Positions 4,346-41,395 of a stretch of 64,000 nt of DNA are shown piece by piece (the first letter of the stretch is position 1; each line of letters starts with the position of its first letter). This DNA is from Candidatus Omnitrophota bacterium (GTDB lineage Bacteria > Omnitrophota > Gorgyraeia > Zapsychrales > Fredricksoniimonadaceae). Under the pieces are notes generated by a model. It was not told the origin of the DNA. It did not search any database and saw only the letters and a program-made list of their open reading frames with translations. Made by a program: the position numbers and the translations under genes. The stretch is from NCBI GenBank assembly GCA_903836515.1, contig CAILQW010000004.1:5036-69035 (forward strand), read 5' to 3'.

Positions 4346-4348
4346 GGC

Positions 4349-8658: not shown

Positions 8659-8659
8659 A

Positions 8660-9112: not shown

Positions 9113-9136
9113 TTTCTAATCCGTATAGCACACCTA

Positions 9137-9273
9137 GCTTTTACTGGTTTAAGGCTGAAGGCATGCCGCAGATGCGAGTTCAGAAACCAAGCTTTCCATA
9201 ATTCCTTTTAGAAAAAGCTGTTTCTGCTGTCTGAGCAGCCAGGCATGCCGCAAGCCTTAAAAACCAGTAAAAG
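9137..9273. repeat. large imperfect inverted repeat (~33-bp arms, ~70-nt nested-hairpin spacer) between ahbA and ahbD-like genes
   Basis: gcttttactggtttaaggctgaaggcatgccgca ... aggcatgccgcaagccttaaaaaccagtaaaag; spacer holds gcagaaac/gtttctgc stem and direct repeat aggcatgccgca. Confidence 0.55.
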
Positions 9274-9456
9274 ATCACACTCACAATCGAGAAATGCTCC
9301 ATCTCAATAATTAAAAATTTTTCGTCTGCCTTAACGCGCCACCCTTCCGGCTTCCCTCGGGGCTTGCGAGCCCCTCGTTCCAGGCGGAAGGGGACCATCG
9401 CTTGGCGCGGCGAAAACAACAACTGCCAAGCACGCCCAAGAATCAACTTTAAAATC

Positions 9457-10428: not shown

Positions 10429-10429
10429 G

Positions 10430-11416: not shown

Positions 11417-11417
11417 G

Positions 11418-14137: not shown

Positions 14138-14166
14138 ATACGCATCACCTAATATATTTTTTATGA

Positions 14167-14187
14167 GGGCGGGTCTTAGACCCGCCC
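14167..14187. repeat. REP-like GC-rich palindrome, copy 1 (GGGCGGGTCTTAGACCCGCCC)
   Basis: Perfect palindrome in cobA/hemD-hemC intergenic, followed by CTAC. Confidence 0.6.
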
Positions 14188-14240
14188 CTACACACCATGG
14201 GATACATCCATCACGGCATACCTGGGCCACTCACATGTAC

Positions 14241-14261
14241 GGGCGGATCTTAGACCCGCCC
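14241..14261. repeat. REP-like GC-rich palindrome, copy 2 (GGGCGGATCTTAGACCCGCCC)
   Basis: One-mismatch variant 54 nt from copy 1, abutting hemC stop. Confidence 0.6.
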
Positions 14262-14267
14262 CTGCCT

Positions 14268-15197
14268 TCAATAGGGACTTTTCAACGCCGCCCTGATCCA
14301 GGCCCCATCAGAATCCAGAAGTTCTATGGCCAGCCTTTGGCCCAAGGATTCCGCATCATGGATAGCCCCTGCCGCAACCCGCCGGATCATTTTCTTCCCG
14401 TCGGGTTCAACAACCTGGCCTGTCAGCTGAAGCGTGCCATCGGCAATCTCCGCCAAAGCACCGACAGGAAGACTACACCCGCCGCCCAGGTTTTTCAAGA
14501 ATGATCTTTCGGCGGTAATCGCCGCCCTGGTCGGCGCATGGTCGAACTTCCGGACAACGGCCTCAAGACGGCTGTCACCCTCGCGGATCTCCAGGGCCAA
14601 GGCCCCCTGGCAGGGCGCGGGCAGCATGATATCCAGCGGCATCCGCTCGGTAATAAGCTTCTCCTGGCCCAGACGCACCATACCGGCACAGGCAATCACC
14701 AACGCATCCACCTCACCGGACTGGAGTTTGCGCAGGCGTGTATCCACATTGCCCCGCAGCTCAACCACTTTAAGATCAGGCCGTGCCAGAAGGACCTGCG
14801 CCCGGCGCCGCACACTGCTGGTGCCCACACAAGACCCGGCCTTAAGGCCATGGAACCCGGCGCCATCCCTTGACACAAAAGCATCGCGGGAATCTTCACG
14901 CTCACCCACCGCACCCAGGGTGAGCCCTGGGCGGATATCGCAGGGCATGTCCTTGAGGCTGTGAACCCCCAGGTCGATCTCACCCCGCAACAGCGCCTCC
15001 TCGATCTCCTTCACAAAAATGCCCTGGTGGCTGAAAAGCGCTGCAGGGTCCATGGACCGGTCGCCCGCGGTTGAAATGGTCTTTAACGCGAAGGCATGCT
15101 CAGGGAAAAATTTTTCTAAAATAGAAATGACATGCTGCGTCTGGGTAAGCGACAGCTGGCTTTTCCGGGCGCCCACAATAATTTTCTTGTCACTCAT
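14268..15197 (-). CDS. hemC: hydroxymethylbilane synthase (porphobilinogen deaminase)
   Basis: MSDKKIIVGARKSQLSLTQTQHV..., RGNVDTRLRKL, dipyrromethane Cys region (LGGGCSLPVG); start chosen at AGGTGGA-preceded ATG. Confidence 0.9.
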   Translation of the reverse strand: MSDKKIIVGARKSQLSLTQTQHVISILEKFFPEHAFALKTISTAGDRSMDPAALFSHQGIFVKEIEEALLRGEIDLGVHSLKDMPCDIRPGLTLGAVGEREDSRDAFVSRDGAGFHGLKAGSCVGTSSVRRRAQVLLARPDLKVVELRGNVDTRLRKLQSGEVDALVIACAGMVRLGQEKLITERMPLDIMLPAPCQGALALEIREGDSRLEAVVRKFDHAPTRAAITAERSFLKNLGGGCSLPVGALAEIADGTLQLTGQVVEPDGKKMIRRVAAGAIHDAESLGQRLAIELLDSDGAWIRAALKSPY

Positions 15198-15248
15198 AAA
15201 TGTATCCACCTGGAACAACGACCCGTCGATCTTGGCCGATGTTTGTTT

Positions 15249-15269
15249 GGGCGGGTTTGAAACCCGCCC
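15249..15269. repeat. REP-like GC-rich palindrome, copy 3 (GGGCGGGTTTGAAACCCGCCC)
   Basis: Same arms, different loop, immediately after sirC stop codon. Confidence 0.6.
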
Positions 15270-15911
15270 CTACTTTTCATGCAGGATTTCATATAACAAT
15301 ACCTTTGCCTTGGCCTCCTTACCGGCCAAGACAAGGTCTAAAATCTTCGAATCCATGAGCTTGCGATGGATTGCCTTGCGCTGCGGGATCGTGGCATACT
15401 GACGCTTGATCCGTGTACGGACCGCCCCGAGCATCCGGACAAATTCCCCGTGCGCCAGCGTCAGGCATTGCTCGCACTGTTGCCTCAACTTCTGGGCAAA
15501 CATCGGGCTCTGGCCGCCGGTGGATATCCCCAGGACCAACGGTCCTCTTTTGACCACCGATGGCACAATGAAGGTGCACAGCTCCGGCACATCCACCACA
15601 TTGACAAGGATGTTTTGGACCGCAGCATCTTTAAAAACAACCCGGTTGACCAAAGGATCGTCCGTCGCGGCAATGGCCAGGCAGCAGCCCTTGAGCTGTT
15701 TCTTGTGATATTTTCCATGGATATGAATGATCCTGCCCGAACGGACAGACGGCGCCAGCATCCTGTCAATCTGCGGAGACACCACGGTGACCCGGGCACC
15801 AAAGGCCATAAGCGTCCTGGCCTTGCGGCAGGCCACCTTCCCCCCGCCCACAACCAGGCACTTTTTGCCATTCAGATCGAGATTGACCGGATAATACACT
15901 TTAGAGCTCAT
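15270..15911 (-). CDS. sirC: precorrin-2 dehydrogenase / sirohydrochlorin ferrochelatase (Met8/SirC/CysG-N-like)
   Basis: YYPVNLDLNGKKCLVVGGGKVACRKA Rossmann motif typical of siroheme synthase N-domain. Confidence 0.75.
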   Translation of the reverse strand: MSSKVYYPVNLDLNGKKCLVVGGGKVACRKARTLMAFGARVTVVSPQIDRMLAPSVRSGRIIHIHGKYHKKQLKGCCLAIAATDDPLVNRVVFKDAAVQNILVNVVDVPELCTFIVPSVVKRGPLVLGISTGGQSPMFAQKLRQQCEQCLTLAHGEFVRMLGAVRTRIKRQYATIPQRKAIHRKLMDSKILDLVLAGKEAKAKVLLYEILHEK

Positions 15912-15932
15912 GGGCATCCCCGAATTGTGAAA

Positions 15933-15956
15933 ATCCCCGGCCGTAAGGCCGGGGAT
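15933..15956 (-). terminator. intrinsic terminator after the beta-barrel OMP gene
   Basis: atccccggcc-gtaa-ggccggggat perfect 10-bp GC stem with tetraloop, followed on minus strand by UUUCACAAUU. Confidence 0.5.
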
Positions 15957-15994
15957 TGAAATCACCCGACACCCGGACACTCAAGGCGCCTCTG

Positions 15995-18043
15995 TTACCA
16001 CTTCACATCCACATCGAGCCAGACAACATGCGCGCTGTAATTTCCCGTCGACACGCCTTCAAAATTACGGAAAGCATAATAAGCATAATGCGGTTCGATG
16101 GTCAGATTCTTTTTAGGGACCCACTTGATGCCATTGTCAATGTCATACCATTCCTCATCCACCCCCAGGAGCATGGGCCCCATGGCCGACAAGGTTGTCG
16201 TGATGCTTTTTCCGTCAACATTGGTCGGGTTCTTGGCCCTGGAATATTCCAGGTTGTTGAAGAAAATGAAATTCTCCGTTGGCGCATAACTGGTACTCAA
16301 CGCCCAGGTATACACGTTGGCGGTATACGCCGGCGGCGCTGTCACCAACTGGGATCCGATCCCGCCCGTCTTGGACAACTGCAGGGCATATGACAGGTTG
16401 AACATCAGCTGATCCGTTGGGGTCAGCGTCACCCCGTAAACAAAATCACGCTCGCTGCCAGGCATCTTGACAGAATCATAGTCAAGCTGCTGGAGATGAT
16501 ACGTATTCATGGCGGCCTTGACCTTGAAGGAATTCTCCAGCCACTTAAACGGCCTCCAGGCCAGGCGTGTGGAAAGATCGTCGGACGTCGTATTTAACTT
16601 GTTGATATAAATGGCGCTGTCGCCGGTGACCTGATCGTTCTTGTCTTTCTTTTCACTGTGTTTTAACTCGGTGGTCACCGTCACTTTATTAACGGGCGTA
16701 ATGCGCATGCCGAGGGTCGCCGCACTCGCGGGCACACGGTTAACATTTTCCGCATACTCGGTGGGTAACAGCAGGGATTTCCAGTTGCGTTCCTGGCTCA
16801 GATCAAGGTCCGCGTAAAGACTGGTGCGGGGCACCCCGGCATACCTTAATGAAAAACTTTCCCCGGAGCTGGTCACTTTATTTTCATTCGCCTGGTAGGC
16901 ATCAGCGGTAGCCACCTGGGAAATATTCAGGGAATAGACATCGCTGGTGCCATAACTGCTCTTTAGCTCACCTTTAAACCTGGAAATAAACGTCAGCTTG
17001 TCCGTTAAATTGGACAGCATCATCCCGGTCAACGTATGCGTATTCTGGATGTTCTGCGCCACGCCGTTCCTGAATGTCCCGCCCGTCACAAAGCCTGCCG
17101 GCGTAAAATTCCCGGCGCTGGTATAATCCCTGGCGGCATACAGCATGGAATTGCGCAAATGCCCGAAATGATACCCGAAAGAAATATAACTCTTATCATT
17201 TAACGTCCAGCGCTCCGCCCGCAAAGTAGAGGACAACTCTTTGGTCTGGGGTGTCTCTGTCCTGCGGATGATCTCATTCTCCAGGGCCGCGCCAGTACTG
17301 CCATATATCTGTTCCTGACGCGTGTTGTTGGCTTTAAAGAACACATACTTCTCTTCGCCTTTGACCTTAAAACCGTACACATCCGCCTTGCCTTTAACGG
17401 TCACGGTATCTGTGGTCTCATCGTTACGGACAAAGACCGGGGCGATCTTCTTGCGATTCACCGTGGTGTTACCGCTAAAAGCATAATCTTTAACATAACC
17501 CCATGTCGTGCTGTCTTTGGTGCCGTTCTTGGTATCGCGCTCATACGCCAAACTGAGGTCGGCATTATCCGCAGAACCTTTCCCGACTTCAAACGCAAAA
17601 TGACCGAGGTCCATCTGCAGATCCTGGTTCAATGTGTGCAGGTTCATCCCTGCGGAAGGGAACGGATAATACCCGCCCCTGTTTTCATAATACTTGCGGA
17701 AAGAATCGTAATGGACTTTCACATACCCGACATTGTCCTTGGTGATGAGCATGCACCCGGCATAATCAGCATCACCGACCATGCCATTGCCGTCAAAAGA
17801 AACTGTAACATCCTTCCCGGGCTTGGCATCGAGCATCAATTCCCTGATACCTGACTGGGCACCGTCTTTGGTCCAGTTCATGGCCCGGAATTTCGACAGG
17901 TCGCCTTTAACAAAAGCAGTCTGCACGGGTGTCAATGCCAAAAGAACAGTGCTTTCCTGGGCATGCACAGGCAGGCACCACCCCGCCAGGACCACGCCTG
18001 CCACCACATACCTGCTTAACTTGACAAAAAAGTGATATTGCAT
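15995..18043 (-). CDS. large outer-membrane beta-barrel protein (putative porin of a porin-cytochrome conduit; MtrB/PioB/OmbB-like by size and context)
   Basis: ~683 aa, signal peptide MQYHFFVKLSRYVVAGVVLAGWCLPVHAQE, alternating amphipathic strands, C-terminal ...VWLDVDVKW aromatic terminus; start 15 nt after stop of octahaem gene with GGGGGA RBS. Confidence 0.55.
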   Translation of the reverse strand: MQYHFFVKLSRYVVAGVVLAGWCLPVHAQESTVLLALTPVQTAFVKGDLSKFRAMNWTKDGAQSGIRELMLDAKPGKDVTVSFDGNGMVGDADYAGCMLITKDNVGYVKVHYDSFRKYYENRGGYYPFPSAGMNLHTLNQDLQMDLGHFAFEVGKGSADNADLSLAYERDTKNGTKDSTTWGYVKDYAFSGNTTVNRKKIAPVFVRNDETTDTVTVKGKADVYGFKVKGEEKYVFFKANNTRQEQIYGSTGAALENEIIRRTETPQTKELSSTLRAERWTLNDKSYISFGYHFGHLRNSMLYAARDYTSAGNFTPAGFVTGGTFRNGVAQNIQNTHTLTGMMLSNLTDKLTFISRFKGELKSSYGTSDVYSLNISQVATADAYQANENKVTSSGESFSLRYAGVPRTSLYADLDLSQERNWKSLLLPTEYAENVNRVPASAATLGMRITPVNKVTVTTELKHSEKKDKNDQVTGDSAIYINKLNTTSDDLSTRLAWRPFKWLENSFKVKAAMNTYHLQQLDYDSVKMPGSERDFVYGVTLTPTDQLMFNLSYALQLSKTGGIGSQLVTAPPAYTANVYTWALSTSYAPTENFIFFNNLEYSRAKNPTNVDGKSITTTLSAMGPMLLGVDEEWYDIDNGIKWVPKKNLTIEPHYAYYAFRNFEGVSTGNYSAHVVWLDVDVKW

Positions 18044-18057
18044 CACCGTCCCCCTTT

Positions 18058-18849
18058 TTAATACGTAAATTTCGACGCAAAATTTGACCCGTGCGGCTTT
18101 GTATGGCAAGTCCAGCAGGCCCCGGAACGCTTCATATTGTTCGTATGATCGTCATCTTCAACCAATGTCGGGAAGTTAGCCTGGGCATGACATTTCAGGC
18201 ACAGATTAAAATCCCGGGCCAAGAGCATTTTGGCGTTGATGGAACCATGCACCTTGTGGCAGGTGGTGCAGCCTTCGCGCATGGCCGGATGCTCATACAC
18301 AAAAGGCCCCTGCTGATCCTTGTGGCACTTGAAACAGACTTCATTGGGGCCTTCCATGGATGTGGCAGACCATGGCTTGGCATCTTCACTGTGCATGTTA
18401 TGGCAATCGGTGCAGCTCATCTTGCCCTCTAACACGGGGTGATGATTGGGAAGACGGAATTCCATCTTTTTTTCCATATGACAGGTGAAACAAATCGTGG
18501 GATCTTTCTTGGGATTGATGATGGCGTTCCCCTTGCCGCCACCATTCTCCGCATGGATGCTGCCCGGTCCATGACAGATCTCGCACCCGTTGGCCTCATC
18601 CGTGCTGCCCTTGCCCGCGATCTTGGCGTGCGGAGAAAGTTTGAACGTCTTTCCCTGATCCTCGTGACAGCTGAGGCAGGTTTCCGTCCCCACATACGTC
18701 GCGCCCTTTTGGGACACGGCCAGGGGCTTCTGCTCCACCAGCGCCTGCGCGGGTGTTATGCCTCCGGCGCAAGGAACCAGACAGAACAGCACAAGGCCTA
18801 AAAACGCAGCTTGGGTAAAACGCAGGAAAAGAAACCTTTTGGCTTTCAT
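18058..18849 (-). CDS. octahaem c-type cytochrome (periplasmic or lipoprotein)
   Basis: 8 CxxCH motifs (CLSCH CEICH CFTCH CTDCH CFKCH CTTCH CLKCH CWTCH); signal peptide MKAKRFLFL...LVPCAGG (possible lipobox); AAGGAGG upstream. Confidence 0.8.
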   Translation of the reverse strand: MKAKRFLFLRFTQAAFLGLVLFCLVPCAGGITPAQALVEQKPLAVSQKGATYVGTETCLSCHEDQGKTFKLSPHAKIAGKGSTDEANGCEICHGPGSIHAENGGGKGNAIINPKKDPTICFTCHMEKKMEFRLPNHHPVLEGKMSCTDCHNMHSEDAKPWSATSMEGPNEVCFKCHKDQQGPFVYEHPAMREGCTTCHKVHGSINAKMLLARDFNLCLKCHAQANFPTLVEDDDHTNNMKRSGACWTCHTKPHGSNFASKFTY

Positions 18850-18866
18850 AAGCCTCCTTCGATGTG

Positions 18867-19175
18867 TTATTTTTTGAAATCTTCGATCTTGCCCACGTGC
18901 GTATAGGTATCTGTCGTCGGTTCGACTTCTTTCACAGCCTCTTTCCCTGCCTGCGCCAGAACTGCCTTGCCGTAAGCGTTCCATTCATGCGCCCCATCGT
19001 CTTTCTTGGGGATCTTGTCCACATGGCAATCGATGCACTTGACACTGGCGCCGGGAAATGCCTCTTTGTACTTCTTCATTTCTTCAACATTGGCCCGTGC
19101 GGGAGCGCTGAAGGTTATCCCCCCTGCCAAAACCGTAAGCAATATGATCGTTACCTTCACATGTTGGGTGACCAT
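18867..19175 (-). CDS. monohaem c-type cytochrome, secreted
   Basis: 102 aa, signal peptide, single CIDCH. Confidence 0.65.
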   Translation of the reverse strand: MVTQHVKVTIILLTVLAGGITFSAPARANVEEMKKYKEAFPGASVKCIDCHVDKIPKKDDGAHEWNAYGKAVLAQAGKEAVKEVEPTTDTYTHVGKIEDFKK

Positions 19176-19205
19176 AGGATTCCTTTTTTATGATGGGTTA
19201 CAGGC

Positions 19206-20774
19206 TCAAATCCCTTTTCCTTTATAGCCTCTCTTAAAGAAAACAAAACCAAGAAAGCACGCCTCAAAAACAAGAAAATAAATGATCCAGGTCAATCCGC
19301 CGGAACCTGAACCGTAACTGTGCATGCCGCGGCCCAGCACAAAATTAACACCGTACCAGGTCATCAGGACCAGCAAAAACCCTAGGATGCCGCTGACAGC
19401 CAGCGCAAAATTATTGAGCTTCCTGCTGTAGCGCAAATGGAGGATGGCCATATAGCCGAGAAACGTGATAAACGCCCAGGTCTCTTTGGGATCCCATCCC
19501 CAGAACCTGCCCCAGGCCTCATTCGCCCACACCCCTCCCAAAATAGTACCGGCCCCAAGCGCAATAAGCCCCGCCTGCAACAGGCGATAGATCGTGTCCG
19601 CCGACAGCTGTTCTTCCTGAAGTGTCTGCCTGCCCCGCACGGAGAGGAACAAATGCCGGTGGGAAACAGCCATGGCAAACGCAAAAAGGCTGTAACTGGA
19701 AATGATCGTGATCACATGGACCGTGAGCCAGTAACTGCTGCGCAAGACCGGCGATACCACATCGAGCGACTGATCCACGGGCAGAAGCCTGGCGTAGAGC
19801 ATGATCAGCGCGCTCACCAAAGCGCCGCTCGACAAAAAGGCTGTACGTTTTTTAATGATCACAAAGACGCCCACACTGATCATCAAGACCAGATCCATGA
19901 ACACCATGGTTTCATACATGTTGGCGACCGGCGGCCGGAGGAGGATCATCCAGCGCAAGAGTATCCCCGCGGCATGAAAGATAAAACCGGCGGCAATCAG
20001 AAGTTTCCCCGCATGCTGGGGCAAGGGCCGCGGCCACAACAAACAAACGAAGCCCAGCAGATAAAAAATCCAGGCATAATAAAAAGGCTGCAGCTGATAA
20101 TAGGCTGTTTCCATCCGGAGCCTCACCTGCATGCCTTTTCTGATGGAACGGTCAGCCTGGAGGATCCATGATTTGACCTCCTGCTCCCGGGCGGGTGCTT
20201 TGAGGGCGTAATCATGCACCAGCTTCCTGAACATGTCGGCATCAGCCCCGGACACTTTATAGGGCGATGCCCAGGCCCCTTCATCCGCAGGAATGACCGT
20301 GATGCTATCGCCGGAACTCAACGATTGCACAGCCGCCATGCGCTGGTAGAGTATTTCAGCCTGCTGTTCCAGGGCCGAGGGGCGCTTGTCCTGTTGACGC
20401 CGCCCATTCGCGCTTTGCACCAACGACATTAATGTATCCCAGCCAGGCTTGAGCTGTTGATAGGAAACATGGCCCCCTTCAGCCGGAAGCCCGATCAATT
20501 TTCTTAAATCCGGATGATCGACGCGGATGAAAGGGATCTTCAGGAACTGCTGGGGCTGATCCAGATTGGCCAGAAATAATGCGGTTGCCGTTTGCCCGTG
20601 CCAACGGGTTTTACCACTGATGAGCTGCAAGGTTTCCTGCGCGAATGCGGAAAACGGCTTGATCCTGCCATGATGCTGGACAGGAATGCCTTCGGCGGTC
20701 TCACAGGCATACCCACAGCCGCACCACAACGCCGCCGCAACACAAGCCAAGATCAAAAAAATAATTTTTTTCAT
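19206..20774 (-). CDS. ccsA: cytochrome c biogenesis protein CcsA (System II haem handling)
   Basis: 522 aa multi-TM, WGRFWGWDPKE tryptophan-rich WWD motif. Confidence 0.85.
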   Translation of the reverse strand: MKKIIFLILACVAAALWCGCGYACETAEGIPVQHHGRIKPFSAFAQETLQLISGKTRWHGQTATALFLANLDQPQQFLKIPFIRVDHPDLRKLIGLPAEGGHVSYQQLKPGWDTLMSLVQSANGRRQQDKRPSALEQQAEILYQRMAAVQSLSSGDSITVIPADEGAWASPYKVSGADADMFRKLVHDYALKAPAREQEVKSWILQADRSIRKGMQVRLRMETAYYQLQPFYYAWIFYLLGFVCLLWPRPLPQHAGKLLIAAGFIFHAAGILLRWMILLRPPVANMYETMVFMDLVLMISVGVFVIIKKRTAFLSSGALVSALIMLYARLLPVDQSLDVVSPVLRSSYWLTVHVITIISSYSLFAFAMAVSHRHLFLSVRGRQTLQEEQLSADTIYRLLQAGLIALGAGTILGGVWANEAWGRFWGWDPKETWAFITFLGYMAILHLRYSRKLNNFALAVSGILGFLLVLMTWYGVNFVLGRGMHSYGSGSGGLTWIIYFLVFEACFLGFVFFKRGYKGKGI

Positions 20775-22570
20775 GCCGCCGCCGTTTTTTGTCGAGGTCC
20801 ATAAAACTGGAATAACGCCCCCAGACAGGCCAGGATCGAACCGATATAAATCAACGGGATGCCTGGATTCCTGGCCACAGTAAAGACAGACGCCTTGCCA
20901 TACTGCGGATCGGTGAAATAGGAAGACTGGAATATCTTGTAGCCCTGATATTCAAGAGGATGGTTCATGGCAATGGTCCCCTCTAATGAAAGCTTGCGCT
21001 TGGCATCCGCAAGCACCACATCGCTTTCGTAACTTGCCGCGTCCTGGGTGCCGGGATAGTCGATCTTGCGGAATTGTTTGAGCGCCAGCGAAAAGGGCAA
21101 CTCCGCTGTCCTTGGCTTCAGTAAGAAGGTAACCTCACCTTTGGCCAGCCGCACAGGCGTGGTCTTATCCTCGAAAACCCAGTAAACCTGCGAACCGCTC
21201 ACCGAAGGCACCATGAGCGCCGCCGCCAGTCCACCCTGCTGGCCGTCTTTCGATTGAGCCATCGCATAACTCACGTGCACATGGGACAATGCCGCCTCAA
21301 CACAAAAATCAACATCCATCCATCCTGCCGGTACACATGCCCCCGTGGTGAGGGGGCCTTCCGCCAGGATCTTGTCCTGCAGCCGGGACTGGTAACGCCA
21401 GGCATTTTCCTGATCATAATAGAAAGCCACCTGCAATCCTTCAGGGACATTATCAAGGTCCGCAGGGGTGCCGGCGTCGAATTTGATCTGAAGATCATGA
21501 ACAGGAGCCGACGTCTGGGGATGCATGGACTCAAATTCGGGAAAGAAAGCAAATTTAACGTTGCGGACGGCCGTACCTTTGGCATCCACAAGATCAAAGA
21601 CCACCGCTGGATTGAACCTTTTGGCATCCGGAAGATTGATGATCTTTTTCCCGGCCACGGCCGCGTAAGGATAATAGGCAAGCCCCTTGATCGTGAAGCC
21701 TGTCCGGCCAAGCGGGATACTGGCGGCAAGCGGCTTATCCCCCCCCACATCGATCACAGCGATCTCGTGGCCCGCCTTGTCAGATACCCGCAGCACCGGC
21801 TTCTGGGCCGCAGCCGCCTTCGCCTGAGGGCGCAATACAAGTGTGACCGGGCCCGTCATCGTCTTGTCAGCGGCAGCATCCTGCGCGTCATGTTCGACCA
21901 GCCATACGGCGGCGTCCTCCGCCAGCTGCTTGCTTTGTATCCTGACACGCACAGCATGATTAAGCGGTGCCTGGTCATTGCCAGGGACAACCTCCCGGCG
22001 CTCGACCGCGTTTTCTATGATATTGATGATATTAAAATCAACCGGCTGTCCGGTATTGTTCTGGAAGGAACGATCATGCCCATTCCCTGCTTTTAATGAA
22101 CAAAAGGGAACGGATGCATCCAGGCGTTCTTTAGTCAGCATGAACTGGAAGCTGCCCTTGCGCAAGGCAAAGGCCGTCTCTTCCTGGTTGGGAAAAGAGA
22201 CCCCCAGCGTATACCCAGGCTGTTTGATCGCATGGAGGGTCTCCCCTTCAAAGAGCGTCATCTGCCCCTCAACGCCGTGTGTCCGTGCCATGAGAGCCCC
22301 GGCCAAAAGGCCCAGGATCCCCACATGCGTGATCAAAAATCCGATCTGGCTTTTTTTAAACGGGAACCTCAGGATCGTGGAACAAAATATATTGATCCAT
22401 AAAAAAGAAACCAGGATATCGAACCAGCGTGTCTGGTAAAAAGCCTTCTGGACAAAGGCTGTCCCCTGGATGGCTTCCACCGACGTGGATACGATCAAAA
22501 GGACGATCAATGCCGCGCTGATCACAACAGTAAAACTGACCGACCCGAGTTTCTTAATGATCGCCATCAT
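20771..22570 (-). CDS. ccsB: cytochrome c biogenesis protein CcsB/ResB
   Basis: 599 aa, N-terminal TM helices + large periplasmic domain + C-terminal TM, directly upstream of ccsA with 4-nt overlap. Confidence 0.8.
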   Translation of the reverse strand: MMAIIKKLGSVSFTVVISAALIVLLIVSTSVEAIQGTAFVQKAFYQTRWFDILVSFLWINIFCSTILRFPFKKSQIGFLITHVGILGLLAGALMARTHGVEGQMTLFEGETLHAIKQPGYTLGVSFPNQEETAFALRKGSFQFMLTKERLDASVPFCSLKAGNGHDRSFQNNTGQPVDFNIINIIENAVERREVVPGNDQAPLNHAVRVRIQSKQLAEDAAVWLVEHDAQDAAADKTMTGPVTLVLRPQAKAAAAQKPVLRVSDKAGHEIAVIDVGGDKPLAASIPLGRTGFTIKGLAYYPYAAVAGKKIINLPDAKRFNPAVVFDLVDAKGTAVRNVKFAFFPEFESMHPQTSAPVHDLQIKFDAGTPADLDNVPEGLQVAFYYDQENAWRYQSRLQDKILAEGPLTTGACVPAGWMDVDFCVEAALSHVHVSYAMAQSKDGQQGGLAAALMVPSVSGSQVYWVFEDKTTPVRLAKGEVTFLLKPRTAELPFSLALKQFRKIDYPGTQDAASYESDVVLADAKRKLSLEGTIAMNHPLEYQGYKIFQSSYFTDPQYGKASVFTVARNPGIPLIYIGSILACLGALFQFYGPRQKTAAA

Positions 22571-23637
22571 GGGGTATATGCCTCTTTGGACACGCCGGCG
22601 TCCTGCATGAGTTCGAAGAGGGCCGCTTTATCAAGAGCCCGGTAAAACTCGTTGATCTTGGCGGCGATGATCTGCTCGGAGGCCGCCACGGCGGTCTGGC
22701 GCTTGATCATGTTATCCTGCACGGTCTGGGAAAGATCATCCACGGAAACAAGCGCCACGCCCTGAACCTCGGCGACCTGGGGATCGATGTTGCGGGGAAC
22801 CGCAATGTCAATGGCCGCGAGTTTCCTGTGCGGACGGGCTGACATCACCCGCTCCATAAGCTCCTTGTCGACCAGATAATGGGGCGCGCCGGTCGAACAT
22901 ATACAGACATCTGCCTGTTCAAGGATCTCCCGGATCCGCCAGAAAGACACAGCCTCCGCCCCGCATGCATGCGCGAGTTCCTCCGCCTTTTCATGCGTCC
23001 GGTTCATGACATAAATCTTTTTAACACATTTGTGTCTCAACTGCTGGATCGCCAGGGAACCCATTTTCCCGGACCCCAGCACCAGGACCGACTTGTCTTC
23101 CAGCGAGCCCAGGATATCCTGCGCCTTGGAAACCGCGGCCCAGGACACCGACGATCCCCCGCCATCGATGAGCGTTTCCCGGCGGACCTTCTTGCCCGTC
23201 TCAATGGCAAAATTGGAAAGGATGTTCAGCGTGCGGTTGAGCATCCGTTTTTCCTGAGAACTGCCAACGGCCTGCTTGAACTGGCCCAGGATCTGTTTCT
23301 CTCCGAGAATCATGGAGTCCAGGCCGGCCACCACACGGAAAAGATGCAGCACAACATCCTTCTCATAATGTATATAGAAAAATTTCTCAAAATCCGCGGC
23401 AGGCGCAAGGCCTTTGAAAGCAAGGAACAATTCGAGCAGCCGGGATACATCGGCTTCCAGAAGATCGGCGTAAATCTCGGTGCGGTTACATGTGGAAATG
23501 ATGATCGAGGCCAGGACAGACGGCTCGCTCATGAACTCGGCCAGCAAACATTGTTTTTCAACCGGCTGAAGAAAAAACTTTTCTCTGATCTCTAAGGGGC
23601 ATGTCTTGTGATTAACGCCGATCAAAACCAGGGGCAT
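22567..23637 (-). CDS. hemA: glutamyl-tRNA reductase
   Basis: LIGVNHKTCPLEIREKF, STCNRTEIY, NAD-binding GSGKMG. Confidence 0.9.
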   Translation of the reverse strand: MPLVLIGVNHKTCPLEIREKFFLQPVEKQCLLAEFMSEPSVLASIIISTCNRTEIYADLLEADVSRLLELFLAFKGLAPAADFEKFFYIHYEKDVVLHLFRVVAGLDSMILGEKQILGQFKQAVGSSQEKRMLNRTLNILSNFAIETGKKVRRETLIDGGGSSVSWAAVSKAQDILGSLEDKSVLVLGSGKMGSLAIQQLRHKCVKKIYVMNRTHEKAEELAHACGAEAVSFWRIREILEQADVCICSTGAPHYLVDKELMERVMSARPHRKLAAIDIAVPRNIDPQVAEVQGVALVSVDDLSQTVQDNMIKRQTAVAASEQIIAAKINEFYRALDKAALFELMQDAGVSKEAYTP

Positions 23638-23759
23638 CAGGTATCTCCTGAAATAAAAAAACCGTTGCCTGAGTGGGTCTATGGAAATTCAGGCCTATAT
23701 AATATAAAGAAGGGACCTGAAAATCAACCAATTTTTCCGATTGTGCGCTGTTAATGCGC

Positions 23760-25250
23760 TCAAGATCCGCTATGGCAATCCGCGCAATTCATCTGCTTCC
23801 AGGATTCATCTCCGTCAAAAGGATGCCGGAACGGCAGGCCGTCAACACTCTTCTCCATATTGTCAGCCGGCCCCTGGGCAATGATCGCATGGCACACACC
23901 GCAATCACGCGTGATGGTCTTGCCGGAAGACGCATTGTGTTCCCCGTCATGGCAGCGGAAACATCCGGGAGAGATCATGTGGCCGATATTATCCGGATAC
24001 ACATCCCATCTCACTTTCATTTCAGGAAAAATATTGCTCTTAAAGAGCTCCACCACATACGCGATGGCGTCATCTACCTCGTTGCGATGGGCGTTATAAT
24101 ACTCCGCCTGCTTTTCTTTATAATACGCTGACAAAACCGACCGGATCCTGGTCACAGCCTCTTCTTCGCTGGCATATTTTGCCGCCAGCACCTCGACCGC
24201 CCTGGCTTTAATGAGAGGGATACCAGGATTGATCTTGCCTTCGGCCATGGCCCGGTTTACCAGCGGCATGGGCGCCTCGTAATGATGCGATGGCCGGGAA
24301 TGACAATCAATGCAATCCATTCTCCTGATGTTCGCGGGTGACGGGTTAAATTGTTTCTTGGCCGCCTCCTTGGTCATGTAAACGACAGCCTCTCCCTTTT
24401 TATTGACGCTTTTAACCCAGGAAATCTGCTGGCGCTTCTCATCATCCGCCGCATAATAGATCACATGATCACTGTTCATATGCGCGTGAATGCCGCGGTT
24501 CTCCCCTTCTTTCCCGCTGACGTGCATCAGCATGCGGACATCCCAGCGGGATATGGCTCCCGGCTCACCCGGAAAATAACTCCGTTCGAGCTCAATGGCC
24601 CCAAACGACTTCCCGGGCCAGTGGCACTCCTCGCAGGTGTCCTTGGCCGGACGAAGGTCATGCACAGGCACAGGGATGGGCCGGGCGTAATCGTTGAGCA
24701 GGGTCTTGACAACCTGACGGGCCCCGGACAATTTGGAGCGGACATACCACCCCGCACCGGCCCCGATATGGCATTCCACGCACTTCACCCTGGCATGAGG
24801 CGATTTCAGATAGGCGGTATACTCGGGCTTCATGATGTTATGGCAGGTGGTCCCGCAAAAGGGCACGGATTCCGTATAATTGAAAGCTTTATACGATCCG
24901 ACCGCGGTCATCACCATGAAAATGACCGTGATCACAATGAACGCCACCGCGGCATTGCGATGCGCCGCATTGGCCAGATCGAACGTAAAGGTTTCCCGGT
25001 CATCGGATACACGCCCAAGACGGACATCGCGTTTTTTCTTCAACGCCCCCAGCGGGATCAGCAAAAGCCCGATGATCAAAATCGGCGGAAGCACGACATA
25101 GGTGAACAGGCTGAGGTAACTGTTGGTGGAAGGCGTCAGGAAGTCCATGGCAAACAATATCCCCTCGACAACAAACATAACCAGGGACAAGGCTGCCCCC
25201 AAATATGAAATCTTGTTGTAAAAATATTCGGAAAAGATTTTCTGCGCCAT
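23760..25250 (-). CDS. membrane-anchored heptahaem c-type cytochrome (ImcH-like inner-membrane quinol oxidoreductase candidate)
   Basis: 3 N-terminal TM helices, then CGTTCH (CX3CH) + 6 CxxCH (CVECH CEECH CIDCH CFRCH CGVCH CADCH); ~496 aa architecture matches ImcH/NapC-NirT-like proteins. Confidence 0.55.
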   Translation of the reverse strand: MAQKIFSEYFYNKISYLGAALSLVMFVVEGILFAMDFLTPSTNSYLSLFTYVVLPPILIIGLLLIPLGALKKKRDVRLGRVSDDRETFTFDLANAAHRNAAVAFIVITVIFMVMTAVGSYKAFNYTESVPFCGTTCHNIMKPEYTAYLKSPHARVKCVECHIGAGAGWYVRSKLSGARQVVKTLLNDYARPIPVPVHDLRPAKDTCEECHWPGKSFGAIELERSYFPGEPGAISRWDVRMLMHVSGKEGENRGIHAHMNSDHVIYYAADDEKRQQISWVKSVNKKGEAVVYMTKEAAKKQFNPSPANIRRMDCIDCHSRPSHHYEAPMPLVNRAMAEGKINPGIPLIKARAVEVLAAKYASEEEAVTRIRSVLSAYYKEKQAEYYNAHRNEVDDAIAYVVELFKSNIFPEMKVRWDVYPDNIGHMISPGCFRCHDGEHNASSGKTITRDCGVCHAIIAQGPADNMEKSVDGLPFRHPFDGDESWKQMNCADCHSGS

Positions 25251-25273: not shown

Positions 25274-26761
25274 TCAGCTTCTTTTTTCTATCGTCCTGAT
25301 CAGATTGTCAAAAATAAAAAGATGGAACGGATAGCACAAAAACCAGTAAACCCTTCCGGCCGCACTGTCGGTATCATAATACGCCGTTACCGAAAGCTTC
25401 CGGGCCCCCTGGATATCATCGATATTGAATTCAAGCCACGCCCTGCCGGGAAGCTTCATTTCAGCCCGAAGCAGAAGGCGTTTGCCGGGCTGAAGGTCCT
25501 CGACACGCCAGAAATCAATGACATCATTGATCTCAAGTTTTGTCTGGCTCTTTCTTCCCCGGGCGGTCCCGACCCCTCCCAGCAATCTGTCCAGGGCCCC
25601 TCTTAACCGCCACAGCCAGTTGGTGTGGAACCAGCCTTGTTTGCCGCCGATCATGCATATCGAACGGAACAGGGCCCCGGCTTCCTTGGACGTGACAAGG
25701 CTGCTGTGCTTCGTGTAGGAGATGCCGGCAGCGATCTCATGAAGTTTCAGCGCCAGTTCATGCGCCGGCGGATAAGCATCCGACCAACGGGTCGCCACCG
25801 TGTCCTGCTCCACGCGGGATATGGCCCTGACAATAGATTCCTTGAAAGACAACGGCGTAAAAGGCAAAAACGCGTGGATCGAGTTCTCCTGGCAAACAAC
25901 CTCGTTGCTCGCCCCCTCCAGCAGGCACTGGATGATCGGCGCCGGCACAGGGGTATAAAGACTCGCGACATAGGCGTAAATATTGATATCAGAAAAAAAA
26001 GACGGAATGAAAACGGTCTTCTTGTTAAGAAGGAGCGCCACAAGCTTGAGCATGCGCTGATACGTCAGAACACTGCGTCCGCCAATATCGAAACTTTTGC
26101 CGGCCGTCTGGGGTATCTCAAGCACACCGACAAGATATTTGATGACATCCCGGACAGCGATCGGCTGGCATTTGCTTTTGGCCCATTCCGGAAGCAGGAT
26201 GAACGGGAGCTTCCTTACGAGGTGATAAATGATCTCGTACGACGCACTGCCGGAACCGATGATGATGGCCGCGCGCAGGATGGTGACAGGGGTCTTGCCC
26301 GAACGCAGCTCCTGGGCGATCTCCATGCGGGAACGCAGGTGCGAGGACAGCACCCCGCGCGTATCCCCCAGGCCCCCCAGATAAATGATCCGCCTGACGT
26401 TCCGGCCTTCGGCCGCCACACGGAAGTTCTTCGCCACCCGAAGGTCCACTCCCTCGAATTCTTTAGGGCCCCGCAGGAGGGAATGCAATAAATAATACGC
26501 CGTGTCGATCCCTTCCAGCGCCCGGGCCAATTGATCCTGGTCGAGCGCGTCGGCGACCACAATTTCGGCCCCGGGCCAGCGCAGGGCATATTCCGGCGAC
26601 GGCGCCCTCACCATGATCCGGACCCGGTAGCCGCGGGCGAGTAATTCAGGAACAAGCCGTCCCCCGATATATCCCGATGCCCCGGTGACCAGAATGCGCC
26701 CGATCTGCGGCTGGAACGCCGAAGACAGATCCGCGCAAAATAAACTTTCCCCCTGCATCAA
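25274..26761 (-). CDS. NAD(P)H-binding SDR-family protein with C-terminal DUF2867-like domain
   Basis: ILVTGASGYIGGRLV Rossmann motif; C-terminal region typical of DUF2867. Confidence 0.65.
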   Translation of the reverse strand: MMQGESLFCADLSSAFQPQIGRILVTGASGYIGGRLVPELLARGYRVRIMVRAPSPEYALRWPGAEIVVADALDQDQLARALEGIDTAYYLLHSLLRGPKEFEGVDLRVAKNFRVAAEGRNVRRIIYLGGLGDTRGVLSSHLRSRMEIAQELRSGKTPVTILRAAIIIGSGSASYEIIYHLVRKLPFILLPEWAKSKCQPIAVRDVIKYLVGVLEIPQTAGKSFDIGGRSVLTYQRMLKLVALLLNKKTVFIPSFFSDINIYAYVASLYTPVPAPIIQCLLEGASNEVVCQENSIHAFLPFTPLSFKESIVRAISRVEQDTVATRWSDAYPPAHELALKLHEIAAGISYTKHSSLVTSKEAGALFRSICMIGGKQGWFHTNWLWRLRGALDRLLGGVGTARGRKSQTKLEINDVIDFWRVEDLQPGKRLLLRAEMKLPGRAWLEFNIDDIQGARKLSVTAYYDTDSAAGRVYWFLCYPFHLFIFDNLIRTIEKRS

Positions 26762-28704
26762 GCTTTTAATCCAAAGGTAAACCCGGACTTGACACGCCTG
26801 ATCAGCGCCGGAAGCGTCTGCAGATAATCCCCGACGACGCCGTAGTCGGCGCAGTTGAACATATGCGACTGGCGGTCCTGGTTGATGGCAATGATCCGCC
26901 CCGATTCCTTCATGCCGCTCACATGCTGAATGGCGCCGGAAATGGCCACCGCGATGTAGAGCTTGGGACGCACGGTCTTGCCGGTCTGGCCGATCTGACG
27001 GCTGTAGGGCGCATACCCGTGGTCGACCGCCTGGCGGGTCGCACCCCAGGCCGCACTGATGCCCTTTTCTTCCAGGGCTTCGACAAGTTCCTTGATAAGC
27101 TTGAAATCATCCAGCTCGCCGCAAGGGCGCCCGCCGGTGACAATGACGCTGGCGCTGAAAAGCCCCTCGTCGCCCGCCTCTTTACGTTCCGTACTGAGGA
27201 TCTCCACGGCAAAAAGGCTGTCATTCAGTTGAGGGACAAACGGCGTGATCTTTCCCTGACGGGAAAGATCTGGCTGGGATGCCTCAAAAGTGCCGGGCCT
27301 GGCCGTAGCCATTTGGGGGCAGCGGAAACCGACAATGGTCGCCAGCTTGCTTTCACCGTATGTCGGACGAATGGCCTCCAGGCAGGGCGACCAGATGGTC
27401 TTTGAGGAGGGCTGAACAAATTCGCCCACCTTGAGGATGGTGCAGTCCGCGGTCACACCGGCACCCAGGCGGCTGCCCAGGCGCGGGGCAAGTTCGCGAC
27501 CCGAGGTGGTTGCCCCAAAGAGGCTGATCTCCGGATGGCGTTCTTTCACGATCTGCTCGATCACGCTGGTAAAAGGCAGGATCGAATATTCCTTGAGGCG
27601 CGAGTCCTCCACCACGATCACCTCATCGGCACCGTGCGCAATGAGGCGCGGGGCCAGACCGGCCACGTGATCCCCGATCAAGACCGATGTCACGGTTGTT
27701 TTCAATTCATCCGCCAGTTTGCGGGCGGGGTTGAGGATCTCGATGGAAGACAACGCCAATTCCGTGGCGACAACCTCGGCCCAGGTGAAAATGCCGCTGG
27801 CGCCGTTGCGGAAATCCTTGCGCGGAAACCTGTCCTGCCTGGGTGTTTCTGCGGCCCCCGGAGCGCTGACAGCCTCCGGCGCTGCCGCGGCATGAAGGCT
27901 GGCGGCGATGTCGAACGTTTTGGCCAGATTGCCGGCCAATTCCTCAGCGGTATTCCCGTTGATCATGCTGACCGGAGGACGATTGCGGGTGATATTGACG
28001 ACCTTGGCCACACTCGTCGGCGACCCGTTCAACCCGACTGACGCCGGGTCCAGTCCGATCTGATCAAGGTTATACGCCTCGATAGAAACCTGGCGGGCTT
28101 TGATCGCACCTGCCAGCGAAGGCCGGCGGACATGGATCGCGGTTGGCGCCACGGAAACGACACACGGCATCGGGACTTTGAGAGTCTGGTGCCCGCCTTC
28201 GATCATGCGCCTGACCACAAGATGTGCCGGGGCGTAATCAACACTGACAGCAAAAGTCACCTGGGCTATCCCCAGGTTCTCTGCCACCTGGGAAGGCACA
28301 TGTGCCGTGTCCCCGTCGCTGGTCTGGCGGCCGGCAAAAATGATATAGGGAGTGTGTGGATCCGCGGGCAATATCTTGCTGCGCAAGAGTGTGGCCAGGG
28401 CCAGTCCCGTCGAAAAAGTATCCGATCCACCCAGGCGGCGGTCCGAAAGAAGGATCGCACGGTCGAAGCCCAGGGAAATCGCCTGGCGCAGGGATTGATC
28501 AAAGCTCGGCGGCCCCATGGACACGACGATCAGCTCCGCGTCCGGAACGTATTTTTTTATCTGAAGGCCCTGCTCAAGGCCAAAACAGCAGTCCACGTTG
28601 ATCATGGACTTCGCCTTGGTGCGGTCCATCAACCCATCCTCGCCCATGCGCATCTGCGAGAACAACGGTACCTGTTTCATCAAGCTGATAACTTTTAATC
28701 CCAT
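26758..28704 (-). CDS. etfBA: electron transfer flavoprotein, fused beta-alpha subunits (EtfB-EtfA)
   Basis: N-term MGLKVISLMKQVP (EtfB-like) ~260 aa, then EtfA-like domain with FAD-binding C-terminus (AISGAIQHVSGM). Confidence 0.8.
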   Translation of the reverse strand: MGLKVISLMKQVPLFSQMRMGEDGLMDRTKAKSMINVDCCFGLEQGLQIKKYVPDAELIVVSMGPPSFDQSLRQAISLGFDRAILLSDRRLGGSDTFSTGLALATLLRSKILPADPHTPYIIFAGRQTSDGDTAHVPSQVAENLGIAQVTFAVSVDYAPAHLVVRRMIEGGHQTLKVPMPCVVSVAPTAIHVRRPSLAGAIKARQVSIEAYNLDQIGLDPASVGLNGSPTSVAKVVNITRNRPPVSMINGNTAEELAGNLAKTFDIAASLHAAAAPEAVSAPGAAETPRQDRFPRKDFRNGASGIFTWAEVVATELALSSIEILNPARKLADELKTTVTSVLIGDHVAGLAPRLIAHGADEVIVVEDSRLKEYSILPFTSVIEQIVKERHPEISLFGATTSGRELAPRLGSRLGAGVTADCTILKVGEFVQPSSKTIWSPCLEAIRPTYGESKLATIVGFRCPQMATARPGTFEASQPDLSRQGKITPFVPQLNDSLFAVEILSTERKEAGDEGLFSASVIVTGGRPCGELDDFKLIKELVEALEEKGISAAWGATRQAVDHGYAPYSRQIGQTGKTVRPKLYIAVAISGAIQHVSGMKESGRIIAINQDRQSHMFNCADYGVVGDYLQTLPALIRRVKSGFTFGLKA

Positions 28705-28710
28705 ACCACC

Positions 28711-30384: not shown

Positions 30385-30449
30385 GATGTTCTCTCGATTT
30401 AAGGTGTTGGAGGGAGTTCGCTCATCCCCCGATCGAAAAAAGGCCAGGC

Positions 30450-36100: not shown

Positions 36101-36107
36101 AGATCCC

Positions 36108-40396: not shown

Positions 40397-40399
40397 CCC

Positions 40400-41395
<996 letters not shown>

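Follow-up and report, generated by a model that had tools for sequence, protein, structure and literature searches.

This work concerns a putative trans-envelope electron conduit, comprising three cytochromes and an outer-membrane barrel, encoded within a 64,000-nucleotide (nt) stretch of the genome of a Candidatus Omnitrophota bacterium (GenBank assembly GCA_903836515.1, contig CAILQW010000004.1, forward-strand positions 5,036 to 69,035). The whole of this stretch is referred to as the window, and all positions are given relative to its first letter. The conduit genes belong to a minus-strand run spanning from approximately 1.3 kb to 31.4 kb of the 64-kb window, in which the order of transcription is the heptahaem imcH-like gene, hemA, resB/ccsB, ccsA, the monohaem gene, the octahaem gene, the outer-membrane protein (OMP) gene, sirC, hemC and a cobA-hemD fusion. 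Within this run, 23760-25250 encodes an ImcH-family inner-membrane heptahaem cytochrome of 496 amino acids (aa), the proposed quinol:cytochrome oxidoreductase; 18867-19175 a small secreted monohaem cytochrome c of 102 aa (approximately 75 aa when mature), the proposed periplasmic shuttle; 18058-18849 an MtrA-like periplasmic octahaem cytochrome of 263 aa, starting MKAKRF, the proposed haem wire within the barrel; and 15995-18043 a predicted 26-strand MtrB-fold outer-membrane beta-barrel of 682 aa, starting from the ATG at 18043, the proposed insulating sheath for the octahaem. No other open reading frame (ORF) in the 64-kb window contains more than one CxxCH motif.

A previous sequence-only reading of the window had described these as four genes in one orientation forming a candidate porin-cytochrome conduit. 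Its ORFs, coordinates and motif counts are all present on the minus strand and correct, and the shared orientation stands, but the genes are not contiguous, as three others, omitted from that description, lie between the heptahaem and monohaem genes. The first of these minus-strand genes is hemA, encoding glutamyl-tRNA reductase (22567-23637; TIGR01035, E=1.5e-107, over the cutoff). The other two encode System II cytochrome c maturation proteins: resB/ccsB (20771-22570; PF05140, E=1.2e-26), and a gene for a CcsA-type haem-handling protein (19206-20774; PF01578, E=3.7e-32; TIGR03144, E=2.2e-46, under the cutoff), for which the matched NCBIfam model bears the name CcsB. There are 4-nt overlaps between hemA and resB, and between resB and ccsA, and the ccsA stop is separated from the monohaem start by 30 nt. 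Given this tight spacing, the conduit genes of this lineage probably share a transcript with the hemA-resB-ccsA genes for haem supply and cytochrome maturation, on which they depend. A weak promoter-like site lies within the 122-nt gap after imcH.

The heptahaem cytochrome and the ImcH family

The heptahaem protein has three transmembrane helices, corresponding to hydrophobic segments at residues 14-41, 44-72 and 95-123, followed by an atypical CX3CH haem motif (CGTTCH) at residue 132, and then CxxCH motifs at 157, 206, 313, 430, 450 and 489. Residues 100-188 match the NapC/NirT family (PF03264, E=9.8e-11), within a region of NapC/NirT/NrfH similarity extending over residues 100-211 (NrfH model TIGR03153, E=3.2e-15; PDB 2j7a_C, E=2.5e-4). 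According to Zhong and Shi (PMC6295460), ImcH proteins are 495-519 aa long, with three N-terminal transmembrane helices, an atypical CX3CH motif beside the transmembrane domain, six CX2CH motifs, and similarity to NapC/NirT around the third helix and the first haems. The window protein shares each of these features: the length, the helices, the CX3CH and six CX2CH motifs, and the NapC/NirT region. The correspondence is close with ImcH of Geobacter sulfurreducens (GSU3259), a 507 aa protein with transmembrane helices at 13-35, 45-67 and 100-122, and haem motifs starting at 132, 156, 205, 311, 428, 448 and 486 (PMC6295460 Table S3). Both proteins have three N-terminal helices, a CX3CH beside the third of them, and then six CxxCH motifs, with the haem motifs agreeing to within 3 residues, and the helix boundaries to within about 7. 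Judged by the published criteria and the motif coordinates of GSU3259, the heptahaem protein is a member of the ImcH family, in agreement with the ImcH-like architecture originally suggested for it.

Three Omnitrophica proteins with the same motif pattern are already among the listed ImcH homologues (PMC6295460). That 2018 survey found its 71 homologues to be confined to Fe(III) reducers, with no mtrAB or mtoAB adjoining imcH. Neither in Geobacter nor in the surveyed homologues is imcH beside a porin-cytochrome pair, whereas such a pair is linked to the gene in 20 of the 24 related loci described below.

The octahaem cytochrome and its paired barrel

The octahaem protein has eight CxxCH motifs within 263 aa, and aligns with PDB 6r2q_A, from the Shewanella baltica Mtr complex (E=1.6e-30), in two overlapping stretches that cover query residues 17-259. 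We take 6R2Q chain A to be MtrA (PMC7198977); the molecule label in the match table differs. The protein also matches the DmsE/MtrA model TIGR03508 (E=2.8e-48; 164.7 bits, against a cutoff of 192.2), and its best NCBIfam match is to NF041028, the GSU2203/OmcK decahaem family (E=6.1e-53; 180.1 bits, against a cutoff of 325). As these scores are significant, yet under the curated cutoffs, the sequence is that of a relative of both families, rather than a canonical member of either. With a TIGR03508 score below the cutoff, and eight CxxCH motifs instead of ten, it falls outside the canonical MtrA/DmsE/MtoA/PioA group. In the local alignments, the six motifs of MtrA residues 173-327 are matched by the last six of the octahaem, and the opening two of each protein are also paired; relative to MtrA, the octahaem therefore lacks one internal two-haem unit. 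The mature protein has nine histidines outside the motifs for eight haems, which would be enough for bis-His ligation throughout.

Octahaem orthologues from four loci retain an AxA signal peptidase I site (AQA, AHA, AQA and AYA), a few residues beyond a conserved cysteine that always has phenylalanine at position -1. The combination of the conserved AxA site and this phenylalanine leads to the prediction that the octahaem is soluble in the periplasm, like MtrA, following export via Sec and signal peptidase I. A cytoplasmic location, which would have been at odds with a role in a conduit, is not predicted. The alternative of an octahaem lipoprotein, prompted by a possible lipobox (LVPCAGG), was rejected: the string exists, but the context of its cysteine is not kept as a lipobox, while the AxA site is conserved in all the orthologues examined. 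The eighth haem motif varies between orthologues, being CxxCH in the window (residue 245), L002 and L007-L009 (such handles denote individual related loci), and CX4CH (e.g. CWASGCH or CFSGGCH) in others; the orthologues concerned include those at 9329-9976 in L001, 9330-9986 in L004, 9240-9983 in L005, 174-1001 in L026 and 2168-2950 in L027.

The octahaem stop (18060-18058) and the barrel ATG (18043) are separated by a 14-nt minus-strand junction (18044-18057), one nucleotide shorter than first reported, which contains GGGGGA (18054-18049) 5 nt upstream of the ATG. This arrangement is consistent with co-translation, and therefore with the translational coupling that had been proposed for the pair.

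The barrel protein has a signal peptide (VHA|QE) and an aromatic C-terminus (WLDVDVKW), and its C-terminal residue is aromatic in all the orthologues examined except that of L025, in which a glycine follows the tryptophan. Sequence searches of Pfam, NCBIfam and the PDB returned nothing for it, even at E=10. Word-indexed searches for homologues returned 13, then 10 matches, whereas exhaustive searching with a HMMER profile yielded 673 cluster representatives, of which 258 had E<=1e-30 and were mostly full length. Hence the idea that the barrel family is very rare was rejected as an artefact of sensitivity, with the sampled ImcH loci all carrying the barrel.

A first structural model was built from 13 sequences, and a confident one from a 110-sequence alignment (predicted local distance difference test score, pLDDT, 90.7; predicted template modelling score, pTM, 0.86). 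The secondary structure of the latter was parsed as 26 strands across residues 32-681, joined alternately by tight turns of 2-5 residues and by longer loops; the strands towards the N-terminus are shorter, and strands 1 and 2 have a small helix (49-56) between them. MtrB, as described by Edwards et al. (PMC7198977), likewise has 26 strands and a small capping helix, placed in the surface loop between strands 1 and 2, and its first four strands are shorter. MtrB was the closest solved structure to the confident model by two methods, and was the top Foldseek match by six orders of magnitude over the next. TonB-dependent barrels ranked below it, with at most approximately 456 residues aligned, and a template modelling (TM) score of about 0.4. 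The barrel is therefore predicted, from this model, to have an MtrB-like fold. With the same strand number as MtrB, the pore of which is about 30 A and holds MtrA (PMC7198977), the modelled barrel would not be too narrow for a cytochrome.

Other barrel families fitted less well. The window protein matched none of the Plug, TonB_dep_Rec, phosphate-porin or alginate-export models at E=10, and MtrB remained its closest fold. As residues 32-119 are modelled as barrel strands, there is no plug domain, and the protein differs from TonB-dependent transporters, in which an N-terminal plug with a TonB box sits within a 22-strand barrel. Nor does it resemble a Cyc2-type fusion, having no haem motif, and cysteines only at residues 23 and 97. 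Across 58 barrel-family members, the GSU2204-family model weakly matched six (best E=6.3e-12), though not the window barrel itself, and Porin_O_P weakly matched three; in the one member inspected, the GSU2204-model match was weak (E=0.002) and in the barrel region. Thirteen of these 58 members (P0216, P0237 and 11 others, all distant and approximately 800-900 aa) have PSCyt1 ('planctomycete cytochrome c') monohaem domains, one or two in number, fused to the N-terminus of the barrel. The PSCyt1-fused barrel examined (L026, 1020-3482) has an 8-haem MtrA-like gene directly upstream. By analogy, this amounts to a large cytochrome-porin fusion, Cyc2-like in concept.

The small monohaem cytochrome

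The 102 aa monohaem protein begins with a signal-like segment that ends in ARA, and carries its single haem motif (CIDCH) at residue 47. Nothing in Pfam, NCBIfam or the PDB matches it. Most related loci encode between one and three paralogues (e.g. at 8526-9171 in L001; 8591-9170 and 15158-15454 in L006; and 1847-2122 and 7592-7924 in L024). These share the invariant pattern K.YK..KC..CH...PKK..G.H...Y, which contains one invariant histidine outside the motif, and no conserved methionine. Haem ligation is probably bis-His, given this invariant histidine. A relationship to the PSCyt1 domains fused to distant barrels was rejected, as the motifs were unrelated on inspection.

Conservation of gene linkage

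The comparison covered 24 distinct related loci, drawn from barrel-homologue lookups, a scan of species-representative genomes (16 loci), three ImcH-like homologues, which were picked solely by the length of the surrounding sequence, and two very distant barrel relatives. The 16 scanned loci were nearly all from Omnitrophota metagenome-assembled genomes (MAGs), originating in lakes, groundwater and sediments. The gene set is recurrent within this phylum. In each of the loci with upstream sequence (23/23), an 8-haem MtrA-like gene, with eight CxxCH motifs, or seven and one CX4CH, was directly upstream of the barrel. The gaps between the two genes in orthologous loci were mostly 12-24 nt, and the upstream octahaem orthologues were 43-78% identical. 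This pairing persisted where the barrels were only 20-23% identical (the cytochromes being 43-54% identical), and for the PSCyt1-fused barrel.

In 20 of the 24 loci, an ImcH-like gene of approximately 500 codons, always encoding six CxxCH motifs and a CX3CH, shared the strand of the module and lay no more than about 8 kb away. Two arrangements were evident. In the window and its closest relatives, the order is imcH-hemA-resB-ccsA-mono-octa-barrel-sirC and onwards (arrangement A), while more divergent lineages have hemA-mono-octa-barrel-imcH (arrangement B); hemA neighbours the module in both. As the linkage has survived rearrangement, this is good evidence that imcH and the monohaem, octahaem and barrel genes form a functional unit. 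Eight CxxCH motifs in 263 aa, and a gene order kept across 24 independent related loci, cannot be random.

A GC-rich minus-strand hairpin (15932-15957) lies 38 nt past the barrel stop, and has an 11-bp stem (AATCCCCGGCC / GGCCGGGGATT, 15957-15932) with a TTAC loop, followed by TT..TT; the minimum free energy of the region is -35.4 kcal/mol (z = -2.4). It was not called by a consensus terminator scan, because its T-tail is short. An equivalent hairpin and T-run, with compensatory changes in the stem, is present in six arrangement A loci (L001, L002, L004, L007, L008 and L009). The hairpin proposed to close the unit is therefore real and conserved, but the same-strand run does not stop there, continuing through sirC, hemC and onwards; its most likely role, placed as it is after the last conduit gene, is that of a partial terminator or a 3' stabiliser.

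Some variation was observed in the genes surrounding the module. L020, L026 and L027 have the octahaem-barrel pair without an ImcH-like gene within the flanks fetched; the neighbours in L026 are an extracytoplasmic function (ECF) sigma/anti-sigma pair on the opposite strand, and those in L027 are two-component regulators. CbcL-like genes, in which a multihaem domain is fused to a Ni_hydr_CYTB dihaem cytochrome b, lie beside the module in L001 (1-1382), L004 (1-1059) and L023 (9513-11393), and sets encoding multihaem, 4Fe-4S (Fer4) and NrfD proteins in L002 (1-2300) and L024 (5111-7591). This variety of inner-membrane quinol oxidoreductases is reminiscent, by analogy, of the several potential-specific routes in Geobacter. 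In L006, the region between the barrel and the ImcH-like gene (12271-15454) encodes a 406 aa nonahaem protein with a C-terminal transmembrane anchor, a Rieske protein, a cytochrome b, and a third monohaem paralogue, and nonahaem genes of similar size are present in L010, L014 and L022. The L006 nonahaem protein was rejected as a candidate surface cytochrome, given its C-terminal anchor and its position with the Rieske protein and cytochrome b. In L001, an RHH/PIN toxin-antitoxin pair (12892-14487) separates sirC from hemC, which was called in two pieces (177 and 91 aa) that could reflect a frameshift or an assembly error.

Genomic context within the window

Downstream of the conduit, and outside it, minus-strand sirC/cysG-N (likely ATG at 15917; TIGR01470, E=3.6e-55), hemC (TIGR00212, E=5.6e-98) and the cobA-hemD fusion (NF004790, E=1e-89) occupy 12596-15917. 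They are part of a contiguous cluster for siroheme-dependent (alternative) haem biosynthesis (6929-15980, minus strand), the other members of which are hemL, two NirDL/AhbAB-like genes (8188-9112), an AhbD-like radical-SAM/SPASM gene (9457-10428), hemB, and an AhbC-like radical-SAM gene (11418-12599). A longer plus-strand ORF (9364-10419) overlapping the AhbD-like gene has no Pfam match, and is probably spurious.

Complex I subunit genes are found at 1337-5317. Directly upstream of the imcH-like gene, the minus-strand region 25274-31427 encodes a DUF2867/NmrA-like protein of 495 aa, a fusion of the beta and alpha subunits of electron-transfer flavoprotein (ETF; 648 aa), ETF-quinone oxidoreductase (ETF-QO) and a polyprenyl synthase. 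The presence of complex I, ETF-QO and the polyprenyl synthase implies that the organism has a quinone-based respiratory chain. No terminal oxidase, nitrate reductase or carbon-fixation genes were among the annotated window ORFs.

Elsewhere, the window encodes two paralogous sensor histidine kinases (43172-45403 and 52676-54829, minus strand), each with an N-terminal region of seven transmembrane helices and a GAF domain; an HD-GYP-like/GAF protein (41405-42589); BatD-like and BatA/VWA proteins of the aerotolerance-operon type (34313-38967); and a FadL/TodX-family outer-membrane protein (46556-47929). Four ORFs had no Pfam match: 5774-6919 (minus), which sits between hemL and the nuo genes, 36824-37954 (plus), 39263-40573 (plus) and 62299-63924 (minus), encoding 381, 376, 436 and 541 aa, respectively. 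The remainder of the window consists of housekeeping genes. Several homologous loci come from MAGs that probably derive from magnetic enrichments, and a role for the module in magnetite biomineralisation was considered. It was rejected, as no magnetosome-related families were among the annotated window ORFs, and most of the other MAGs bearing the module originate from ordinary lake and groundwater metagenomes.

Discussion

The core of the sequence-only reading, in which a multihaem cytochrome and an MtrB/PioB-sized barrel are tied to an ImcH-like cytochrome, is therefore supported, having survived the comparison with unrelated barrel families, the prediction of the octahaem's cellular location, and the consideration of the barrel's width. 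We conclude that the locus probably encodes a complete and compact Mtr-type trans-envelope electron path, directed outward, without an MtrC-type partner. Firstly, quinol generated by complex I and ETF-QO, both encoded nearby, would be oxidised at the inner membrane by the ImcH-family heptahaem. Secondly, the electrons would pass to the small periplasmic monohaem, itself probably bis-His ligated. Thirdly, the monohaem may hand them to the MtrA-like octahaem, inserted within the 26-strand MtrB-fold barrel so as to span the outer membrane. Fourthly, with no partner of the MtrC type, the octahaem would itself pass them directly to an acceptor that is extracellular or can be reached at the surface, candidates being chelated or colloidal Fe(III), Mn(IV) and humic quinones. 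Outward flow is favoured because of the association with ImcH, surveyed only in Fe(III) reducers (PMC6295460), and because the neighbouring enzymes reduce quinones.

The module can be compared with several known systems. Like the core of Shewanella MtrCAB (6R2Q), it has a multihaem cytochrome homologous to MtrA, encoded directly upstream of a barrel. However, the cytochrome has eight haems rather than ten, the barrel is missed by MtrB/PioB models, there is no surface decahaem equivalent to MtrC or OmcA, and the inner-membrane protein is of the ImcH type, not CymA. In architecture, MtoAB (with MtoD and CymA) of Sideroxydans and Gallionella, and PioAB of Rhodopseudomonas palustris, are likewise two-component conduits without a surface cytochrome. 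Alongside its conduit, the Mto cluster, like the module, has genes for a small periplasmic cytochrome with one haem and for an inner-membrane cytochrome related to NapC/NirT. Nevertheless, MtoAB and PioAB have decahaem cytochromes and barrels recognised by MtrB/PioB models, and function in Fe(II) oxidation, whereas the monohaem described here has no detectable similarity to Pfam or PDB cytochromes, and the module's inner-membrane protein is from a family never found beside mtoAB in the 2018 survey (PMC6295460).

A further comparison is with the porin-cytochrome (Pcc) conduits of Geobacter (OmaB/OmbB/OmcB and Ext), which also have an octahaem and porin encoded side by side, and share the concept of a conduit fed by ImcH or CbcL. 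According to Shi et al. (PMC4245776), Mtr-type systems combine a large barrel with what is always a decahaem, whereas Pcc-type systems have porins of 18-22 predicted strands, and cytochromes of 5-14 haems. The module's octahaem equals OmaB in haem number, but its barrel, at 26 predicted strands, is much larger than Pcc porins, and the locus lacks the outer-membrane multihaem lipoprotein that normally accompanies them. Hence the suggested likeness to MtrB/PioB or OmaB/OmbB holds in the first case, through the strand number and the MtrA homologue, and not in the second. If the barrel model is correct, the module is a hybrid, pairing an Mtr-fold barrel and an MtrA homologue with eight haems. It is also an exception to the observation that mtrAB and mtoAB do not adjoin imcH (PMC6295460).

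The closest named relative of the octahaem-barrel pair by sequence is OmcK/GSU2204 of Geobacter, because of the matches to the OmcK and GSU2204 families, and the neighbourhood of the two, as GSU2204 would neighbour OmcK (GSU2203) by locus-tag order. A selenoproteome review describes the GSU2204 family as MtrB/PioB-family beta-barrels, and both GSU2203 and GSU2204 rose when Geobacter was grown with hematite or magnetite. Yet neither the octahaem nor the barrel family scores anywhere near the curated cutoffs, GSU2203 has ten haems, and the CXXCH or selenocysteine motif of the GSU2204 family is absent from the window barrel.

Several observations weigh against a complete, outward-directed path. 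The organism is uncultured, and the function of the pathway is deduced computationally. At the level of sequence, the models proposed for identifying the barrel failed to do so: the MtrB/PioB models did not match the window barrel at E=10, and among the 58 barrel-family members PF11854 matched only one (E=2.2e-7), and TIGR03509 none. Neither the single barrel sequence nor the 110-sequence family profile recovered MtrB from the PDB sequences. Hence the relationship to MtrB rests on predicted structure, and this in turn depends on model quality, as the first, shallow model (13 sequences; pLDDT 63.7) placed TonB-dependent barrels above MtrB. The eight haems of the octahaem, when all known MtrA, MtoA and PioA have ten (PMC4245776), leave in doubt whether it would span the barrel. 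No MtrC/OmcB-type surface cytochrome is encoded in the window, as the sequence-only reading had recognised, or in any of the related loci, and the known two-component MtrAB-type conduits that lack such a cytochrome, MtoAB and PioAB, serve Fe(II) oxidation (PMC4245776), weakening the case for outward flow.

This last point is the reason for considering, as an unlikely but substantial alternative, that the same hardware operates inward, as an Fe(II)-oxidising or electron-uptake conduit resembling MtoAB or PioAB. At the surface, dissolved Fe(II), reduced humics or a mineral would then donate electrons to the octahaem, with the monohaem playing the role of MtoD, and the ImcH-like protein, or the Rieske/cytochrome b complex of L006, receiving them. 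Such a direction is in keeping with the lack of a surface multihaem cytochrome, and with the ability of multihaem chains to conduct both ways (PMC6295460). The set of monohaem, MtrA-like, barrel and NapC/NirT-type components would also mirror mtoD-mtoA-mtoB-cymA of Sideroxydans, and L006 joins the module to a Rieske/cytochrome b pair and a membrane-anchored nonahaem. Against this, the surveyed ImcH homologues come from Fe(III) reducers and are never beside mtoAB; the annotated window ORFs include none of the terminal oxidase, nitrate reductase or carbon-fixation genes; and the adjoining complex I, ETF and ETF-QO feed the quinone pool, rather than draining it.

It is very unlikely, and graded as purely speculative, that the conduit instead serves electron exchange between cells, with ultra-small and possibly host-dependent Omnitrophota passing electrons to, or taking them from, a partner or host via the exposed end of the octahaem. 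Omnitrophota are reported to be mainly ultra-small and to show host-dependent traits, with predicted conductive pilins occurring in various parts of the phylum (PMC10066038), and the module is without the mineral-contacting surface cytochrome typical of metal reducers. However, respiratory lifestyles, which this gene set fits, have been placed in the class Omnitrophia, and this is not the class with the strongest symbiosis signals (PMC10066038); the window also shows nothing suggestive of attachment or host interaction. Least likely of all is that the barrel is a channel for the uptake of solutes, or of iron or haem, and a plugless relative of TonB-dependent-type proteins, with the cytochromes undertaking periplasmic redox chemistry, such as ferric reduction for haem synthesis: although the genes of the window lineage lie between ccsA and sirC, within a run for haem biosynthesis and cytochrome maturation, and three family members weakly matched Porin_O_P, the confident model clearly favours MtrB over TonB-dependent barrels, the N-terminal 120 residues form barrel strands without a Plug match, neither tonB nor exbBD was seen among the called genes of related loci, arrangement B places the module beside imcH and outside the haem cluster, and strict pairing with an MtrA homologue is a hallmark of porin-cytochrome complexes.

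The general idea of clusters encoding porins and multihaem cytochromes in these phyla is not new. He et al. (2017; PMC5615132) described, in freshwater Verrucomicrobia (a phylum of the PVC group) from humic bog and anoxic humic water, putative clusters encoding an eight-haem periplasmic cytochrome beside a large novel porin of at least 20 strands, with several of the clusters also encoding an extracellular multihaem cytochrome. These porins are likened to the window barrel by description, and the barrel-family profile search reaches members fused to PSCyt1 domains, which are characteristic of Planctomycetes and Verrucomicrobia. FeGenie-type 'metal-reducing cytochromes', homologous to periplasmic cytochromes of D. 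ferrophilus, were flagged in 10 of 23 Omnitrophia species by Seymour et al. (2023; PMC10066038). Neither paper reports that such a barrel has an MtrB fold, that it is tied to ImcH and a small monohaem, or that the genes are embedded among those for haem and cytochrome maturation, and none of the literature searched was found to describe this fold, the association with ImcH or the small cytochrome in Omnitrophota.

These results bear on how electrons leave the inner membrane. ImcH is essential for high-potential extracellular respiration in Geobacter, in which its partners in the periplasm and outer membrane are scattered and redundant, and the route outward from ImcH is undefined. The linkage of imcH to a single MtrAB-like pair and a small cytochrome provides a compact four-gene module that could be transferred to E. 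coli or Shewanella. If the predicted structure is correct, MtrB-fold barrels exist beyond the reach of current MtrB/PioB sequence models, and therefore surveys based on these models likely under-count such conduits. The module also predicts extracellular electron transfer in Omnitrophota, which are uncultured, abundant and mostly ultra-small cells of anoxic lakes, groundwater and sediments, with consequences for iron and humic cycling in these habitats, and for how these bacteria live. In its fullest form, which we regard as unlikely, the proposal would be of a self-sufficient minimal pathway, from ImcH, through a novel small bis-His cytochrome, to an eight-haem MtrA within a sequence-divergent MtrB-fold barrel, with the octahaem itself reaching the surface and no MtrC-type partner involved. 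It would be widespread in ultra-small Omnitrophota, serving them for the respiration of humics or Fe(III), or for electron exchange with a partner or host cell. If this were true, Omnitrophota would be an unrecognised electroactive group, and the module would define genetically, for the first time, a route from ImcH to a conduit in the outer membrane.

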